From positions 96,001 to 160,000 of IMG/VR virus record IMGVR_UViG_3300021387_001774: DNA of 64,000 nucleotides; one strand, 5' to 3'. The translations under genes and the position numbers were made by a program. Below the pieces are notes generated by a model. That model made no database searches, was not told where the DNA came from, and saw nothing but the letters and a program-made list of their open reading frames with translations. Below, one piece after another: positions 1 to 29,870 of this stretch. The stretch is from a virus. Lineage: Duplodnaviria; Caudoviricetes. Within the stretch, counting starts at the first letter, position 1. Each line of letters begins with the position of its first letter.

Positions 1-393
1 GTTCAAATAGATTGTAAAATACATAATAAAATTTATTACAAAAATATCATACAGATAATAATACAGACACAAACTACCTTCAGATAATGATAAACCAAAC
101 CCTTTTTCAAAGAATTCACCCATCTTCATTTGGAAGACTCGCAACGCATCTTTATCATAATCTGTAAATGATGGGTCTATTAATATAGACCTGTCATATA
201 TATTGTTTATTGAATCTTGATTGAAGAAGTTAATCATTGCTTCTTTAAAATAATCTTCTTCTATTGCTTTCTTATTTATAGTACTTATTTGATAATCTAT
301 GTGATCCAAATATTCTCTAAGTATCTGATTTGATTCATCAGTAATTTGTTCTTCTGATGAACTAGTTTCTTCACTATCAATAGTTTCAACCAT
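1..393 (-). CDS. Hypothetical protein, partial (runs off the window start)
   Basis: ATG at 393 overlaps the upstream gene's TAA (TAATG); open frame MVETIDSEETSSSEEQ... to position 1; not in the ORF track. Confidence 0.7.
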   Translation of the reverse strand, partial: MVETIDSEETSSSEEQITDESNQILREYLDHIDYQISTINKKAIEEDYFKEAMINFFNQDSINNIYDRSILIDPSFTDYDKDALRVFQMKMGEFFEKGFGLSLSEGSLCLYYYLYDIFVINFIMYFTIYLN

Positions 394-1232
394 TATTTTT
401 TACCTCCAAAGGAAAATAGTTTATGTTTAAAAGGATTTTTCGGTTTGTGATGAAAGTTAACTTTCATACTTTCTTTAAATGTTTCGGCATTCTTAGCATT
501 TCTCTTTTCAATAAGTTTCATACGTTTATTTTCTTTAGTTTGGAAAGAAGTTTCGTTATGATAATCTTTACTTTTATTCTGATTAGCTTTCTGTTTGAGC
601 TTCTCTTCTCTCATTAAATCTTTTAGCATTTTTATTTCTTTTAACTTAGCAGGTTGTGAATCGACTTTCTTAGCATAGAAATCTTCACTTTTATCACTAA
701 GAATCTTATTTAACATTTGTTTATTAAGAAATCCATTATGAACCAAATGAAAGAAACACATCCAAGTACTTTTTTCAATAGTCATAAGTTGATACGTATT
801 TCTTATATCTGGAGCTTTTGTTATAGCAACTTTACTTAAATGATTAAATCCTATACAATGTGGGAATCCAAATTCTCGTTTTACTACATAATCAAAAGTA
901 AATGTAAAACTAGGTGAATTAGAAAACATCAAGATATCATAATCTTTTATTTCTGTCAACTGTTCTTTATTCTTCTTATGTTCGTCAGTAGGATTAAATT
1001 CCAACACTACATCATACATAATTGCTGTAGGATATTTTTCATTTTCTCCTGATGGAAATTTAAAAAAGAACGTATATCTATCATATTTCTTATTATATAC
1101 ACAAGTTACTAATATATCTTTAGCATATTTTTCAAAGTATGCAGCTTTAAATTCTTCCATTTTTGGTCTAAGATTTATAGCTGCTTGTCCTTTAAAAGGA
1201 GCCATAAAATTATCATATTTAAGTTTTCTCAT
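393..1232 (-). CDS. Hypothetical protein (late-promoter class)
   Basis: 279-aa ORF, GAAGGA SD, preceded by TACA-N5-ATATA. Confidence 0.75.
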   Translation of the reverse strand: MRKLKYDNFMAPFKGQAAINLRPKMEEFKAAYFEKYAKDILVTCVYNKKYDRYTFFFKFPSGENEKYPTAIMYDVVLEFNPTDEHKKNKEQLTEIKDYDILMFSNSPSFTFTFDYVVKREFGFPHCIGFNHLSKVAITKAPDIRNTYQLMTIEKSTWMCFFHLVHNGFLNKQMLNKILSDKSEDFYAKKVDSQPAKLKEIKMLKDLMREEKLKQKANQNKSKDYHNETSFQTKENKRMKLIEKRNAKNAETFKESMKVNFHHKPKNPFKHKLFSFGGKK

Positions 1233-24934: not shown

Positions 24935-24948
24935 AACATAACTATATA
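24935..24948 (+). promoter_or_regulatory. Putative late promoter AACA-taact-ATATA
   Basis: Recurring motif. Confidence 0.6.
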
Positions 24949-24979: not shown

Positions 24980-27900
24980 ATGTATCACTCAAGTGAAGAC
25001 ACTGTTAATGGTGCACATGGTTCTATTGCTAGAACTTATCTTGAAGAATATCGCCATTTAGGTCCGCTTCAAGATGCTCCAGCTTCTCATGACTTCAAAA
25101 CGTATATGACTACTTCTTTAATTAGAAGAGGTATATTATTTGAAAATTCAAAAAATATTAATGAACTTTATAGAGCTTCATTAGAAGAATTATTCTCTAG
25201 TCAATTTAAGAATATTTTCTTGTATGATCCAAAAAGAGAAATTACTGGAATTTACACAGGTATTGAGAATGTAAAAAACATGGGTCCTGTAGGTACTCAT
25301 GATATGTTTGCTTCTTTATTTGGATTAATTCCTGCAAAATATCTACCAATTTTTGAACCATTCGATTATGATTTCAAGAATGATGAATCTATTGATGTAG
25401 AATATACACCAGAAGAGAAACGAATAATAATTCTTTCTCGTGGTATCCATGATGATGGAACAGCTTTCAATTATACAAAGCTTACCGCTTATGATAGAAT
25501 GCTTGGTCCAAATCTTGGTACAACGTATTTTACACATCCAAAACTTCCTAATAGTACTATTTATAATAGAGTAGATACGATTGCTACTCCTAATGTAGAT
25601 CCAAATCAAAAATACTTTATTAGGGTTGATGATACTTATATTGAAACACATGATTTCGATACAGTAGAAGAATTCAACAAAGTTGAAAACTCTATTACTC
25701 CAGATTTTGGAAGAACTTATTATAAGAAAACAAGGAATCCAAATACAGTAAACTTTATTCCTGCAACAGGTATTCCTGATCTTTCTACACAGTATTTCAT
25801 TAAAGATCCAGCAAATGAAGACAATTATATTATTGCTGATGTATTTAATGATAGAAAAGATTATGTTTTAGTAAACCACGAAATGGATCATACTGATTCT
25901 AAATATCCTATTGAAGGAATGGATTACTTTAAACGTAATGAAAACAGAGAATACGTAAAATGTAATGAAGAAGATTTTGCTAAAGAATATGAATATGCAG
26001 AAACAGCAGATTCTGTAGTAAGTCAAGAAAAGACTTATTATATTAAGAATATAGATGACACATATAGGCCTGCTGTAACTGAAGATTTCCTTCATGAAGA
26101 TATTACAGAAGAACGTGAAGCTGATTCATATAATGAAGTACTTGATAAATCTGCTGGTCCTCAACCTGGAACTACTTATTATGTAAAGAATGAAGTTTCT
26201 CATGAATACGTAGCTGTAGATCCAATAAATCTTCCTACAGAAAACATTTATTCTGAAACTCAAGATTTAGCATATGATGAATCTAAGTCATATTATATTA
26301 AAAACGCTGATGGAGTTACATATAGACCTACTGTAAATGAAGACTTTAATAGAGTTGAAAAAACTACAGAGCAAATGGTTGATAATTTCGTTCTTACTGA
26401 AGACGATACATATAATCCTGATAAAGAATATTTTAATAAAAATGGTGACGATTATGTTGCAGCAGAGTTTGAAGAAACACAAACTACAGTCACTACTCAA
26501 GAAAATGTTTACAATCCTACAGAAGATGTAGACTATGATGAAAGTAAAACATATTATGTTTCTGATGGTGATGGCGGTTTTATAGCTGCTGAAGATACTG
26601 ATTTCGATATTGATGCAGATATTAAATCATTCAAGGCTGATGTTACTTATTATGAACTTACAGTAACTACAAAAGAAACTCCTGGTCCAGTCACTACATC
26701 GTTTAAAGATGATCTGGAATACTATGAAAAAGTACAAGTGCCTACTCAAGTACCTAATGGAACATTCGATGTTTCTTTCAAAGATGATGTAACATATTAT
26801 GAGATTACTGGTACAAAAACTATATTTGAAGTAGGTATAATTTATTATACTAAATCAACTGGTACAGATACTGTAGTAATTGGACAAAATACAACATTTG
26901 ATCCAGATTTAACATATTATGAACGTATTAGTTATAAACTTATATTTGCTGATAATATTGATTACTATACACTTGAAATAGTTGGTAAACTCTTTGTACC
27001 TACTATTCAATATTATACAAAACAAGTTATCGATAATGGATATAAATATGAAGAGATAAACGATTTCGATATACATGAAACATATGAATTAGTTGATAAA
27101 TCAGTTATTACTAATCCTGATACAAATGAAACTTACTATGTAATGGAAAACTTCAATTATGTAGCTAAGACAAATCTTTTGACTTGGGAAAGTGATAAAG
27201 AGTATTATACTAAAGTGATTACTAAAACATTTAAAGCTGATGTAGAATATTATTCTAGAGAAACTGTTACAAAATTTAAAGTAGCATCTCTTGATGATCC
27301 ATCCTATATCTATTATACTGCTGAAGAAGTAGATAATGGATACGATGAAACTAAATATGTAATCACTGATGTAAGTGATGGATTTGAAGACATCGATTAT
27401 TATACAGCAGATATCGATTTTGAAAATACAACTCTTACTGATGAAGAAATGGCTGAACTTAGAAAGAAGAAGGTTATTAATAAACTTAATCAGTTATTTG
27501 ATTATTATGTAAAAGATGTATTAACTACAGCTAGAGAAATATTCCTTAAACACGACATTTATGAAATAACAAAATCTGTTAACATGGAGGCATCTGATTA
27601 TGAATTACACGCAATCCGTATTCTTTATAAGAAGATCCTTCAAGTGATATACACGATGGTTTATACAGTAAATGTATCAGCAGACCTTGATGATACATGT
27701 GTACCGTATAAATTACTTAGGGATTCTGTTGTTAATTTATTGGCTAATGTGAAGATTCTTGGAGAAATGATCTCAACAAAGCATTATTATTCTAAGAAAG
27801 TTCTTTCATATTTTATTCCTGATTCAAAGAAAGAAGAAGTCTGGTATAGATATACACTTGTATCTCCATTTAGTGACTTAGTTACTATTGAAGATCAAAC

Positions 27901-28189
27901 TGTAACTATAGACGAAATGACTATGAAACTTACAGAAAATATTATTAATTATAGAAGTCTTCTCGAAAGAACTGATATCATTAATGAGACTGATATGCAG
28001 CACTTGTTTGGTCTGTTTACTATGACGTACAACATTATGGTACAACTATTCTTCAATAGTGCGTATACTTCAAAGAATAAACAACCATTAGTAAATTCTG
28101 TAACAGATCTTTTCAAGAGATTCACACCAAATTATAACAATATTATCAACGGAGAGTCTATTAAAAAATTTGTAAACTTAACGGAGTAA
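24980..28189 (+). CDS. Large late protein with YY-repeat region (fibre-like virion protein)
   Basis: AGGAG SD before ATG 24980; about 20 Y-Y/F motifs between 25470 and 27420. Confidence 0.75.
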   Translation: MYHSSEDTVNGAHGSIARTYLEEYRHLGPLQDAPASHDFKTYMTTSLIRRGILFENSKNINELYRASLEELFSSQFKNIFLYDPKREITGIYTGIENVKNMGPVGTHDMFASLFGLIPAKYLPIFEPFDYDFKNDESIDVEYTPEEKRIIILSRGIHDDGTAFNYTKLTAYDRMLGPNLGTTYFTHPKLPNSTIYNRVDTIATPNVDPNQKYFIRVDDTYIETHDFDTVEEFNKVENSITPDFGRTYYKKTRNPNTVNFIPATGIPDLSTQYFIKDPANEDNYIIADVFNDRKDYVLVNHEMDHTDSKYPIEGMDYFKRNENREYVKCNEEDFAKEYEYAETADSVVSQEKTYYIKNIDDTYRPAVTEDFLHEDITEEREADSYNEVLDKSAGPQPGTTYYVKNEVSHEYVAVDPINLPTENIYSETQDLAYDESKSYYIKNADGVTYRPTVNEDFNRVEKTTEQMVDNFVLTEDDTYNPDKEYFNKNGDDYVAAEFEETQTTVTTQENVYNPTEDVDYDESKTYYVSDGDGGFIAAEDTDFDIDADIKSFKADVTYYELTVTTKETPGPVTTSFKDDLEYYEKVQVPTQVPNGTFDVSFKDDVTYYEITGTKTIFEVGIIYYTKSTGTDTVVIGQNTTFDPDLTYYERISYKLIFADNIDYYTLEIVGKLFVPTIQYYTKQVIDNGYKYEEINDFDIHETYELVDKSVITNPDTNETYYVMENFNYVAKTNLLTWESDKEYYTKVITKTFKADVEYYSRETVTKFKVASLDDPSYIYYTAEEVDNGYDETKYVITDVSDGFEDIDYYTADIDFENTTLTDEEMAELRKKKVINKLNQLFDYYVKDVLTTAREIFLKHDIYEITKSVNMEASDYELHAIRILYKKILQVIYTMVYTVNVSADLDDTCVPYKLLRDSVVNLLANVKILGEMISTKHYYSKKVLSYFIPDSKKEEVWYRYTLVSPFSDLVTIEDQTVTIDEMTMKLTENIINYRSLLERTDIINETDMQHLFGLFTMTYNIMVQLFFNSAYTSKNKQPLVNSVTDLFKRFTPNYNNIINGESIKKFVNLTE

Positions 28190-28191
28190 AA

Positions 28192-29064
28192 ATGGAGTTA
28201 TTTTTTGAAATGCTTGGAAATGTTAGAACTATAGATTTAATTATCTTATTCTGTCTAACATTACCTATTATGATTCTATATGGCATATTTACGTTTATTT
28301 ATTTTAAGTTTGTAGATAGAAAAATACATAAAAAAGAAGATGGAGATTATTATGAATCTCATACTTTGAGTAGATTCTGTTTAGCGGGTATCTTCTTTAT
28401 GTTTGGTTTAATTCTATTTGATATGATAATGGAATTTATATCAGCATATAGTGTGAGTTTCATAAATCCTGAAGTATTGAATGAAGATGTGGTTAAAGCT
28501 CTTAATAATTCATTAATCTTTAATGGAATATGTAGAGTTTTCAAATCTGTTCCTACAGATATTCTGATCAATTTCACTATAGTCTGTACAGCTCTTTATA
28601 CAGGTACGGAAGGTATTATAGCTAGTCTTAGAACTCTAAAAGTTGAATCAGGACTAGCTGTAAGACTTCCAGCTCTTAAACGTAAAAGATTAGCAACATT
28701 ATTCTATATGTGGGGATTCTTATCAATAATCTCCACATTGTATACTTTCTTAATAGGATCCGAAACTGTAAAGTTTGATATAGCAAATGTGTATGTTGCG
28801 CTTGGTGTAACTATGATTATTCTTTTCTTAGCTGAAAGAAGTCCTAGCTTACTCAAAGATCAATCTTTACAAACTAAGATATTTAAAATTTCATCCGATG
28901 GTGTGGTAAAACCATACAAATCAGATGAAGAAGATGATAGTCCTAAAAAGAAAAAGGATTGTCCTGAAAATGTTGGTGATAAAAATGGAGAAGAGTTATT
29001 GGAGTCATCTATAGCGAATTTCAAAAATGAAAGAATAGCTAAAGCTGCTCCAGAGGAGAAATAA
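28192..29064 (+). CDS. Multi-pass membrane protein (holin candidate)
   Basis: About 5 hydrophobic segments, charged C-tail, directly before a peptidase gene. Confidence 0.55.
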   Translation: MELFFEMLGNVRTIDLIILFCLTLPIMILYGIFTFIYFKFVDRKIHKKEDGDYYESHTLSRFCLAGIFFMFGLILFDMIMEFISAYSVSFINPEVLNEDVVKALNNSLIFNGICRVFKSVPTDILINFTIVCTALYTGTEGIIASLRTLKVESGLAVRLPALKRKRLATLFYMWGFLSIISTLYTFLIGSETVKFDIANVYVALGVTMIILFLAERSPSLLKDQSLQTKIFKISSDGVVKPYKSDEEDDSPKKKKDCPENVGDKNGEELLESSIANFKNERIAKAAPEEK

Positions 29065-29066
29065 TT

Positions 29067-29870
29067 ATGGGAAATATTGTTACATTACAAACTACTCCCA
29101 AAACAGGTGTAGTACAAGTAGCAAATGCTGCTGATAATAAAACTTATTATGTCTATAACGTAAGTACAGGTTTTGATAATTATTCTCAACGAAATTCTAA
29201 GTATCAATACGCTGATAGAGATTATAAAACAAACTGGGCATGTTTCTGTAATGTACACATGATGGCAATGGGTTTAATCTATACGGGAACTTATGATAGA
29301 TATAAATCTGAAATAGATGCAAGATACCCAGAATTAACTAGATTTCCTGACAAGTTAGCTAAATTTATTATCGAAGATAAAGATGTAAGAATCTATTATA
29401 AAAAAAGATTCCCAACTTTGTCTTTAGACTTCTTTAATGGTAGAAAAGATGCTTATGGTCCTAATGAAATACATAATGTACTTTCATGGGGAACTAATAA
29501 ATTCCTTGATATAGGAGCTGTAACATATTTCTCTACAAATGTTTCATGGAAAGAAATAATTTATGAATTAGTTTATAAGAAATCTCCAGTAGGTATTTCT
29601 GGTAAATTCTCAGGTCTTAACCACATAGTTTTGTGTGTTGGATGTGCATATGAGAAGCTTGAAGGTGGATCTGCTCCTGGACCAAATCAAGTACCAGATT
29701 ATCTTATTGTAGATGATCCTTATGGAAAAACTTATGAATATTATAAAGGTCTTTCTGGAAACGATATTTGGATTCCATTCTCAAAATGTGTAGATGACTT
29801 CAAATCATTAGAGAGTCCAAATTTCAAATACGCTCACAGATTTATTAGACCTGGTGATTTAGGATTCTAA
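29067..29870 (+). CDS. Peptidase C39-like cysteine peptidase (endolysin candidate)
   Basis: YSQR...C, HIVL, DDPYG catalytic pattern. Confidence 0.65.
   Translation: MGNIVTLQTTPKTGVVQVANAADNKTYYVYNVSTGFDNYSQRNSKYQYADRDYKTNWACFCNVHMMAMGLIYTGTYDRYKSEIDARYPELTRFPDKLAKFIIEDKDVRIYYKKRFPTLSLDFFNGRKDAYGPNEIHNVLSWGTNKFLDIGAVTYFSTNVSWKEIIYELVYKKSPVGISGKFSGLNHIVLCVGCAYEKLEGGSAPGPNQVPDYLIVDDPYGKTYEYYKGLSGNDIWIPFSKCVDDFKSLESPNFKYAHRFIRPGDLGF

Follow-up and report, generated by a model that had tools for sequence, protein, structure and literature searches.

A putative out-and-back beta rod of nested repeat units in a jumbo phage protein

The 64,000-nucleotide window of viral DNA analyzed here (bases 96,001-160,000 of the 263,686-base virus record IMGVR_UViG_3300021387_001774; CheckV completeness 94%) contains a gene for a protein of 1069 residues, P0001, in which ten long repeat units (A units) are followed by ten short ones (B units). 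The two series agree in number and, when both are read outward from the centre, in spacing, and their numbers are also equal in most of the relatives in which they could be counted. We consider it probable that P0001 forms a beta rod from one chain that runs out and back, with a helical base into which the rod is set and with the first half of the repeat region paired with the second. An earlier note on this DNA, made from its letters alone, had described P0001 as a nested repeat protein that forms such a fibre and had attributed it to recursive insertion of a small beta domain. Our analysis supports the nested architecture and leaves recursive insertion as one of two candidate histories.

Two repeat series matched in number and spacing

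Between its helical ends, the middle ~650 residues of P0001 are all beta, and the composition of the protein is rich in T, E, D and Y and neither A- nor P-rich. Ten A-type aromatic-pair motifs (YY/YF) lie 25-47 residues apart at residues 183, 212, 247, 272, 316, 353, 400, 438, 484 and 525. After a centre gap of 32 residues, they are followed by ten B-type motifs at residues 557, 581, 606, 622, 646, 662, 678, 757, 778 and 807, which are 15-29 residues apart within the short series. An A unit is built from a linker strand, the node motif aromatic-x4-T-Y-Y, an extra hairpin of ~21 residues and a D-F end (rough consensus after the linker, Y-N-x-T-x-D-x2-Y-D-x-S-K-T-Y-Y-V-x-D-G-x2-G-Y-x2-A-x3-D-F), and a B unit from a linker strand and the node motif F/W-x2-D-x2-Y-Y (consensus after the linker, S-F-K-x-D-V-T-Y-Y-E). 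Hidden Markov models (HMMs) of the units, built from relatives only and without the window's own sequence, gave 17-57 bits for the A units and 17-34 bits for the B units of P0001; the maxima in 200 composition-preserving shuffles were 6.9 and 5.6 bits, respectively.

These positions agree with what the earlier note had read from the letters: first halves in series and then second halves, one complete unit at the centre (about 26504-26660) and a second one at 27080-27215. The second has its motifs at residues 719/742 and is probably a side knob on the return arm. The mirrored linker lengths that the note had described are also found, the gaps outward from the centre being 41, 46, 38, 47, 37 and 44 residues in the A series and 24, 25, 16, 24, 16 and 16 in the B series. 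At the level of DNA, the repeat region contains no tandem repeat, and its inverted repeats have only short, chance-level arms; the units are therefore old and diverged. We rejected a DNA palindrome as the origin of the mirror pattern on the same grounds, and the pattern is therefore a property of the protein.

Do the two series change together among relatives? A word-indexed search gave ten family proteins of 896-1854 residues, and an exhaustive HMMER search gave 30 family representatives, of which many are fragmentary. All relatives keep the helical parts at both ends, and the difference lies in the middle; most of the partial relatives match P0001 in the C-terminal helical domain. A scan of viral contigs for DNA encoding relatives found none, and the single metagenome locus of a relative covers only the N-terminal 351 residues. 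Units were then counted between conserved anchors in 19 proteins, which comprise three clades and a second protein family. In the window's own clade, the A/B counts of the variable zone were 3/3 (P0001, P0009), 6/6 (P0006, P0007, P0008) and 7/7 (P0004, P0005). A distant clade, in which the period is 41 residues for A and 17 for B, gave 5/5, 7/7, 7/7, 8/8 and 12/12. In the second family, which carries the module at its C-terminal end, the counts were 2/2 in P0040, P0045, P0052 and P0031 and 3/3 in P0053.

Altogether, the A count equals the B count in 17 of the 19 proteins, over a range from 2/2 to 12/12 (correlation coefficient r 0.987), and none of 100,000 permutations reached this number of matches. 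When each distinct state was entered only once, seven of nine matched, a result reached by 2 of 100,000 permutations. We estimate that about five independent paired A/B changes underlie these counts.

We next compared the motif gaps of the two arms, each read outward from the centre, in the nested register, in registers shifted by one or two units and in parallel order. In P0007, the A gaps are 44, 45, 47, 48, 44, 38, 47, 39 and 40 residues and the B gaps 21, 25, 24, 25, 25, 16, 24, 17 and 16. In the nested register, the A gap minus the B gap is constant at ~22 residues (standard deviation (SD) 1.5-3.3, r 0.67-0.92), and this difference is the extra hairpin of the A unit. In the shifted registers, on the other hand, the SD of the difference rose to 4.6-11.4, and with both arms taken in sequence order the gap correlations were negative. 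P0006 fits the nested spacing once a degenerate FF motif is included, and the spacing pairs of the second family (A/B 44/22, 45/25 and 43/22) are similar. Furthermore, the step from a short to a long linker is 8-9 residues on either arm, which is a requirement of two paired strands.

The position of an inserted pair of units follows the same mirror. In alignment A2, P0004 and P0005 have one A unit more than P0007 and P0008, placed after node 4 from the base, and their extra B unit lies between the partners of nodes 5 and 4. The two extra units thus sit level with each other on the rod; counted in sequence order, their positions would be 4.5 and 2.5 of 6. The earlier note had expected paired, symmetric indels among homologs, and the equal counts together with this indel pair at mirrored positions bear it out.

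The region around the centre also occurs in a second gene. Residues 305-495 of P0053, which are its whole C-terminal module of 3A+3B, align without gaps and with 88% identity to residues 548-738 of P0006, which extend from the third-last A unit of that protein across the tip to its third B unit. Therefore, a contiguous stretch around the tip is a self-contained module used in two genes. In the phage of the window, the module of the second gene matches residues 496-587 of P0001 at 47% identity.

Predicted structure and competing explanations

In the proposed architecture, residues 1-162 and 815-1069 would pack together as the base. The chain would run outward through the ten A units, reverse in a tight hairpin at residues 542-551 and return through the ten B units, each of them antiparallel to the A unit level with it. 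The two partners of a pair would form an aromatic node from the Y-x4-TYY motif of A, the 21-residue extra hairpin of A and the F-x2-D-x2-YY motif of B. Between nodes, the linker strands would pair as a two-stranded ribbon, either short (~8 residues) or long (~17-19 residues) and alike on both arms, so that the number of nested pairs would set the length of the rod. The variation in this number is found next to the tip (3, 6 or 7, with a maximum of 12 in another clade), and throughout the window's clade the spacing of the seven base-proximal nodes is constant.

The AlphaFold2 model of full-length P0001 (predicted local distance difference test, pLDDT, 73.8; predicted template modelling score, pTM, 0.44) has DSSP helices at residues 12-153 and 821-1064 and only strands at 163-812, in agreement with the note's view that the repeat block is inserted into a helical protein. 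Fragment 412-616 was predicted with a pLDDT of 93.2 in all five models and a pTM of 0.51. Its strands are 7/17/17 residues long outward and 18/19/9 returning, around one tight central hairpin, whose DSSP strands (131-134 and 137-140 in fragment numbering) have two residues between them. The strand pairs that come next outward in the full model measure 17 and 19, 9 and 11, and 8 and 9 residues. Furthermore, helices from 95-153 and from 820-1035 fit jointly onto individual compact bundles of 157-258 residues (for example, a 157-residue SPX domain with 126 aligned residues at 5.1 Å, model range 128..1031). In the model, the two ends of the beta region therefore lie together. The best structural matches of the C-terminal helical domain and base are generic helical bundles (Z<=5.1).

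In VIA-align, fragment 412-616 had no neighbour reaching Z>=2 among 48,161 representative chains and Foldseek's best 997, a search in which typical models reach Z 7-8. The root-mean-square deviation (rmsd) of the fragment from compact targets of similar size in Foldseek was 37-43 Å. By a rough estimate, such values would need a radius of gyration >30 Å, above that of a four-stranded sheet and below that of a one-way chain. The absence of neighbours and the large rmsd would consequently fit a thin rod and not a compact sheet. The missing neighbours, the mirrored strand lengths around a single tight hairpin and the joint helical bundle also fit the anti-diagonal contact map that the earlier note had expected.

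Family and fold searches gave no relative among described families or among solved structures. Pfam gave zero families for the whole of P0001 at E<=0.01, including the curated repeat models (cell-wall-binding, MORN etc.), and nothing for its two helical parts even at E<=10. PHROGs gave no match for the whole protein (E<=0.01) or for the helical parts (E<=1), and tblastn against the 50,697 phage genomes of INPHARED gave nothing at 1e-5. Neither a profile search of PDB sequences nor the ESM Atlas returned a usable match, and Foldseek (PDB, BFVD) and VIA-align found nothing significant for the beta region. The structural rows from BFVD all had template modelling (TM) scores <=0.07. Foldseek rows for Clostridium perfringens enterotoxin, lysenin and parasporin-2 had E 6e-3 to 0.6, probability <=0.08 and rmsd >40 Å, and toxin-like folds (aerolysin / ETX-MTX2) had no VIA-align support at Z>=2 for fragment 412-616.

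Could the two arms that pair belong to different chains? In an antiparallel arm-swapped dimer or higher oligomer, the A arm of one extended chain would pair with the B arm of its partner, and the counts, the spacing and the indel would fit equally well. Phage fibres are usually oligomers, and the 37-residue helix at 821-857 could form a coiled coil. On the other hand, the monomer model closes the tip by a two-residue turn at very high confidence and places the N- and C-terminal helices of one chain in a shared bundle. The short-loop complete units that stand alone in another protein of this phage (see below) must be intrachain hairpins, and the second family's protein stops right after its last B unit, which is natural for a closed hairpin. 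We therefore regard swapping between chains as improbable.

About equally improbable, and if anything slightly more so, is the alternative that A and B units form two independent tandem arrays, each folded locally (beads on a string, a beta meander or hairpins between adjacent linkers), and that the arms are unpaired. The core and the DNA similarity (D10, D11) shared by A and B motifs are what an ordinary diverged tandem repeat would show, the six-residue segments at the B nodes could be hairpin turns, and the unequal counts in two relatives suit this explanation. However, it leaves unexplained the 17 of 19 equal counts, the mirrored indel and a spacing match that appears only in the nested register. 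Neighbouring linkers within one arm are unequal (17, 7, 17; 19, 8, 19), a poor fit to local hairpins, and if neighbours paired, in whatever scheme, the parity would be flipped by a change of a single unit, from 6 to 7. For a compact sheet with pLDDT 93, moreover, a higher pTM and some structural neighbours would be expected, and the ends of the beta region meet in the model.

A third explanation, that P0001 is a diverged C-terminal subunit of RNA polymerase beta-prime whose trigger loop carries a giant insertion like Si3 of cyanobacterial RpoC2, draws on the top Foldseek row of the full model (cyanobacterial RpoC2, with the Si3 crystal structure also listed), on the neighbouring gene for a phiKZ-type RNA polymerase beta subunit and on the two beta-prime N-terminal genes of the phage, for which Pfam finds no C-terminal partner, but it is very unlikely, as those Foldseek rows have E 2e-3 to 3e-2, probability <=0.08 and TM 0.04; P0001 has no Pfam or PHROG match, whereas the phage's beta subunit matches its PHROG at 2.6e-55; the family profile matches no RNA polymerase chain among all PDB sequences (E<=10); the N-terminal part, with 162 residues and helices of <=15 residues, is too little for regions E-F with the bridge helix; and the same module ends an unrelated protein. 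RNA polymerase subunit identity was accordingly rejected on the sequence and on the size of the N-terminal part. The two beta-prime N-terminal matches (Rpb1 domain 2; G000:C1:185293-185739, minus strand, and 226978-227097, plus strand; L004 and L005) are as expected for a phage with two multisubunit polymerases. Pfam Rpb1 domain 5 (PF04998) had no match anywhere in the phage genome.

Several observations weigh against the single-chain, out-and-back rod. Counts are unequal in P0010 (12/11) and P0054 (10/12), which are close relatives of the 12/12 protein; these may be real intermediates with a bulged unit, or nearly identical 51-nt repeats may have been miscounted in short-read assembly. Common ancestry underlies many of the matched counts. 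A test on the unit-similarity matrix of P0006 (A versus B units) fits nested and parallel pairing equally; it is uninformative because the class pattern xyxzyz reads alike in either direction and the end units differ trivially. The alignments given to AlphaFold2 were shallow (31 and 12 rows, the 12 being those of fragment 412-616), and the Foldseek rmsd of the full-length model (~50 Å) suggests a shape less drawn out than a straight rod. Lastly, the contacts between A and B units are suggested by strand lengths and similar features of the models rather than seen.

How, then, could a nested rod grow? Any contiguous stretch centred on the tip would be a complete hairpin and so could be exchanged or inserted as a cassette, and insertion or exchange of a central cassette would alter both arms in one step and leave them matched. 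The variable units next to the tip and the fixed outer nodes fit growth in or close to the centre. The arms probably also change in separate events, with later selection for a match; we propose this because of the internal mirrored indel of P0004/P0005 and the two mismatched relatives. In P0055, A units 837-877 and 960-1000 have the same sequence and the units beside them almost the same; this indicates a very recent duplication of a three-unit block in the outgoing arm. The proteins with unequal A/B counts are close relatives of P0055.

The counts, the mirrored indel and the nested-register spacing thus support the out-and-back nesting that the earlier note proposed, and growth by recursive insertion is a plausible history for it. 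An equally good one, judged from the sequences, may be that the repeat began as a plain tandem array that folded back on itself. The A and B node motifs share a core (aromatic-x4-TYY) and short direct DNA similarities between A-arm and B-arm elements (node motif, linker), namely 26408-26432 versus 27227-27251 (D10, 80%) and 26472-26496 versus 26673-26697 (D11, 76%). This suggests that A and B units descend from one ancestral unit, and the ancestor was therefore possibly a folded-back tandem array.

Gene setting and possible function

The features discussed are collected in Table 1. The gene of P0001 has an AGGAG 8-12 nt 5' of its ATG, and P0002, a full-length relative that is 98% identical to P0001, has an identical start residue. 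The window has a G+C content of ~29% and encodes a phiKZ-type RNA polymerase beta subunit, helicases, primase, ligase, polymerases, SbcC and a GroEL-like protein, a content from which we conclude that the virus is a jumbo phage. The P0001 gene is divergent from a helicase gene, and it may form one operon with the two co-oriented genes 3' of it. Neither of these two had a match in Pfam or PHROG searches; conserved-looking Cys, His and Asp positions in the 267-residue protein hint at a papain-like peptidase.

Table 1. Coordinates of P0001, its parts and the other genes discussed. Positions are those of the window unless marked; nt, nucleotides.
Feature	Position	Strand	Remarks
Whole gene P0001, 1069 residues	24980..28189	+	ATG start, AGGAG ribosome site upstream
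N-terminal helical part, residues 1-162	24980..25465	+	DSSP helices 12-153; conserved in all relatives (alignment A1); putative base together with the C-terminal part
Proposed outgoing arm, residues 163-541, ten long A units	25466..26602	+	Repeat motifs, HMMs, DSSP
Variable-number zone by the tip, residues 412-616	26213..26827	+	3 A + 3 B here; 3, 6 or 7 of each in relatives
Predicted tip turn, residues 542-551 (FDIDADIKSF), chain reversal	26603..26632	+	DSSP of fragment model; centre gap of YY series
Proposed return arm, residues 552-812, ten short B units	26633..27415	+	Repeat motifs, HMMs, DSSP
Local complete unit, residues 700-750	27077..27229	+	A-like half directly followed by B-like half; conserved in relatives; strands 719-723, 726-730, 742-750
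C-terminal helical domain, residues 815-1069	27422..28186	+	pLDDT 80-96, helices 821-1064; best-conserved part of the family
Gene of 290-residue protein, directly 3' of the P0001 gene, same direction	28192-29064	+	Multi-pass membrane protein: several hydrophobic segments, acidic/lysine-rich tail
Gene of 267-residue protein, second 3' of the P0001 gene, same direction	29067-29870	+	No family match
AACA-N5-ATAT word, AR9 late-promoter type	24935..24947	+	33 nt 5' of the P0001 start codon; weak lead only
Second module-bearing gene (P0040, 661 residues in database copy)	L002 1504-3141 = G000:C1 about 259.8-261.4 kb, outside window	-	Ends in 2A+2B, then stop codon
Gene of 2406-residue protein	L008 697-7917 = G000:C1 about 82.7-89.9 kb, outside window	-	Many YY-type units, GP-x2-G-x2-YY units, stand-alone complete units

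Two further genes of the phage carry the unit. The gene convergent to the second module-bearing gene matches a virion structural protein, phrog_2926 (E 1e-23). The 2406-residue protein is probably a giant fibre; its relatives P0058-P0060 have 2296-2364 residues and are encoded on contigs as long as 267 kb. In this protein and in these relatives, the two halves of the stand-alone complete units are joined by a short Gly-rich loop, and an A-type half and a B-type half can therefore make one local unit.

Could P0001 be a spacer or fibre of adjustable length, anchored by its base and with its tip held tens of nanometres away, probably as a part of the virion? We put this forward tentatively, as a reading that may well turn out otherwise. 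It is suggested by a conserved base and a variable rod, with close relatives differing mainly in rod length, and by the structural protein gene next to the second module-bearing gene. The product of the P0001 gene would then probably be expressed late. As a late promoter, the AACA-N5-ATAT word was rejected, since the window contains it 10 times against a chance expectation of 10.65, and it is unusable as evidence of timing. Two points speak against the proposed function: the gene lies among replication and transcription genes, and the family is small, unannotated and absent from the cultured-phage genomes searched. A role inside the infected cell is therefore kept as the alternative, because the late-promoter-like word is at chance frequency and the neighbours are replication genes.

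Known out-and-back proteins and what the rod would mean

In layout, P0001 comes closest to the Si3 insertion of cyanobacterial RNA polymerase subunit RpoC2, in which the chain folds over itself and beta domains are built from distant segments (PMC10895346). In a 2026 survey of 2.7 million domains, Si3 is the deepest known nesting, with six levels (PMC13114784). Like the rod proposed for P0001, it is a single self-folded chain that forms a rod, ~150 Å in Si3, from a block inserted between two helices. However, Si3 is made of 80-residue SBHM barrels in irregular order and fixed number, whereas P0001 would have small regular nodes joined by two-stranded ribbons, ~ten levels and a number of units that varies among close relatives. 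P0001 has no detectable sequence or fold relationship to Si3 and no link to a polymerase.

Another one-chain stalk is that of antigen I/II, in which the A-region and the P-region reportedly form an alpha helix wound with a polyproline II (PPII) helix, as Larson and colleagues are said to have found in 2010. The likeness lies in an out-and-back stalk in which first-half repeats pair with a shorter second-half series in matched numbers, with a domain at the far tip. In contrast, the antigen I/II stalk is helical and belongs to a cell-wall-anchored bacterial adhesin of a streptococcal family (PMC3178794), whereas residues 163-812 of P0001 are strands only and show no sequence similarity to it. 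The Ala-rich helical and Pro-rich PPII repeats that define antigen I/II were not found in P0001.

The arms of SMC and Rad50 proteins are likewise out-and-back chains. They are antiparallel coiled coils in which the N- and C-terminal parts form one head, and a change of arm length needs compensating indels in both halves; unlike P0001, they are helical and have no discrete repeat units or aromatic nodes. Among phage fibres, the gp37 needle at the tip of the T4 long tail fibre also runs to the tip and returns. It is reportedly an intertwined trimer held by iron-binding histidines, a finding attributed to Bartual and colleagues in 2010, but gp37 has no count-matched modular repeats.

The stems of aerolysin-type and binary toxins resemble the proposed ribbon as very long two-stranded antiparallel hairpins, and the long stem of iota-toxin Ib gave the best TM for fragment 412-616 (0.21 over 144 columns, rmsd 9.1 Å). 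However, the toxin rows have probability <=0.33 and no VIA-align match at Z>=2; the stems have no nodes or repeats, and P0001 shows no membrane-insertion pattern. The fold and family of P0001 are undescribed, and the self-pairing nested architecture itself is of a kind already known. Si3, antigen I/II and the SMC-type arms all lack a detectable relationship to P0001 in sequence or fold, and none has a small regular unit that varies in number among close relatives.

We lean, if only slightly, towards two linked proposals: that P0001 represents a new building principle, a regular, recursively nested beta repeat of ~ten levels whose fold has no relative among solved structures, and that phages tune fibre length and move tips between genes by means of central cassettes. 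A repeat protein is nearly always taken to be a tandem array running one way, and a phage fibre to be a parallel trimer. Two repeat series of equal count and mirrored spacing are the signature of self-pairing along hundreds of residues of one chain. Should a structure bear this out, no nested architecture known so far would be deeper or more regular, the survey's maximum being six levels (PMC13114784), and the rod would be a beta-sheet counterpart of the antiparallel coiled-coil arms.

The rod also raises an evolutionary question, namely how a nest grows when a single duplication breaks the matching; the central cassette common to two genes and the occasional mismatched relatives are hints towards an answer. 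For protein design, such a rod would be a natural modular ruler. For jumbo phages, in which three gene families share the unit, it marks these large unannotated proteins as probable surface structures tuned in length.

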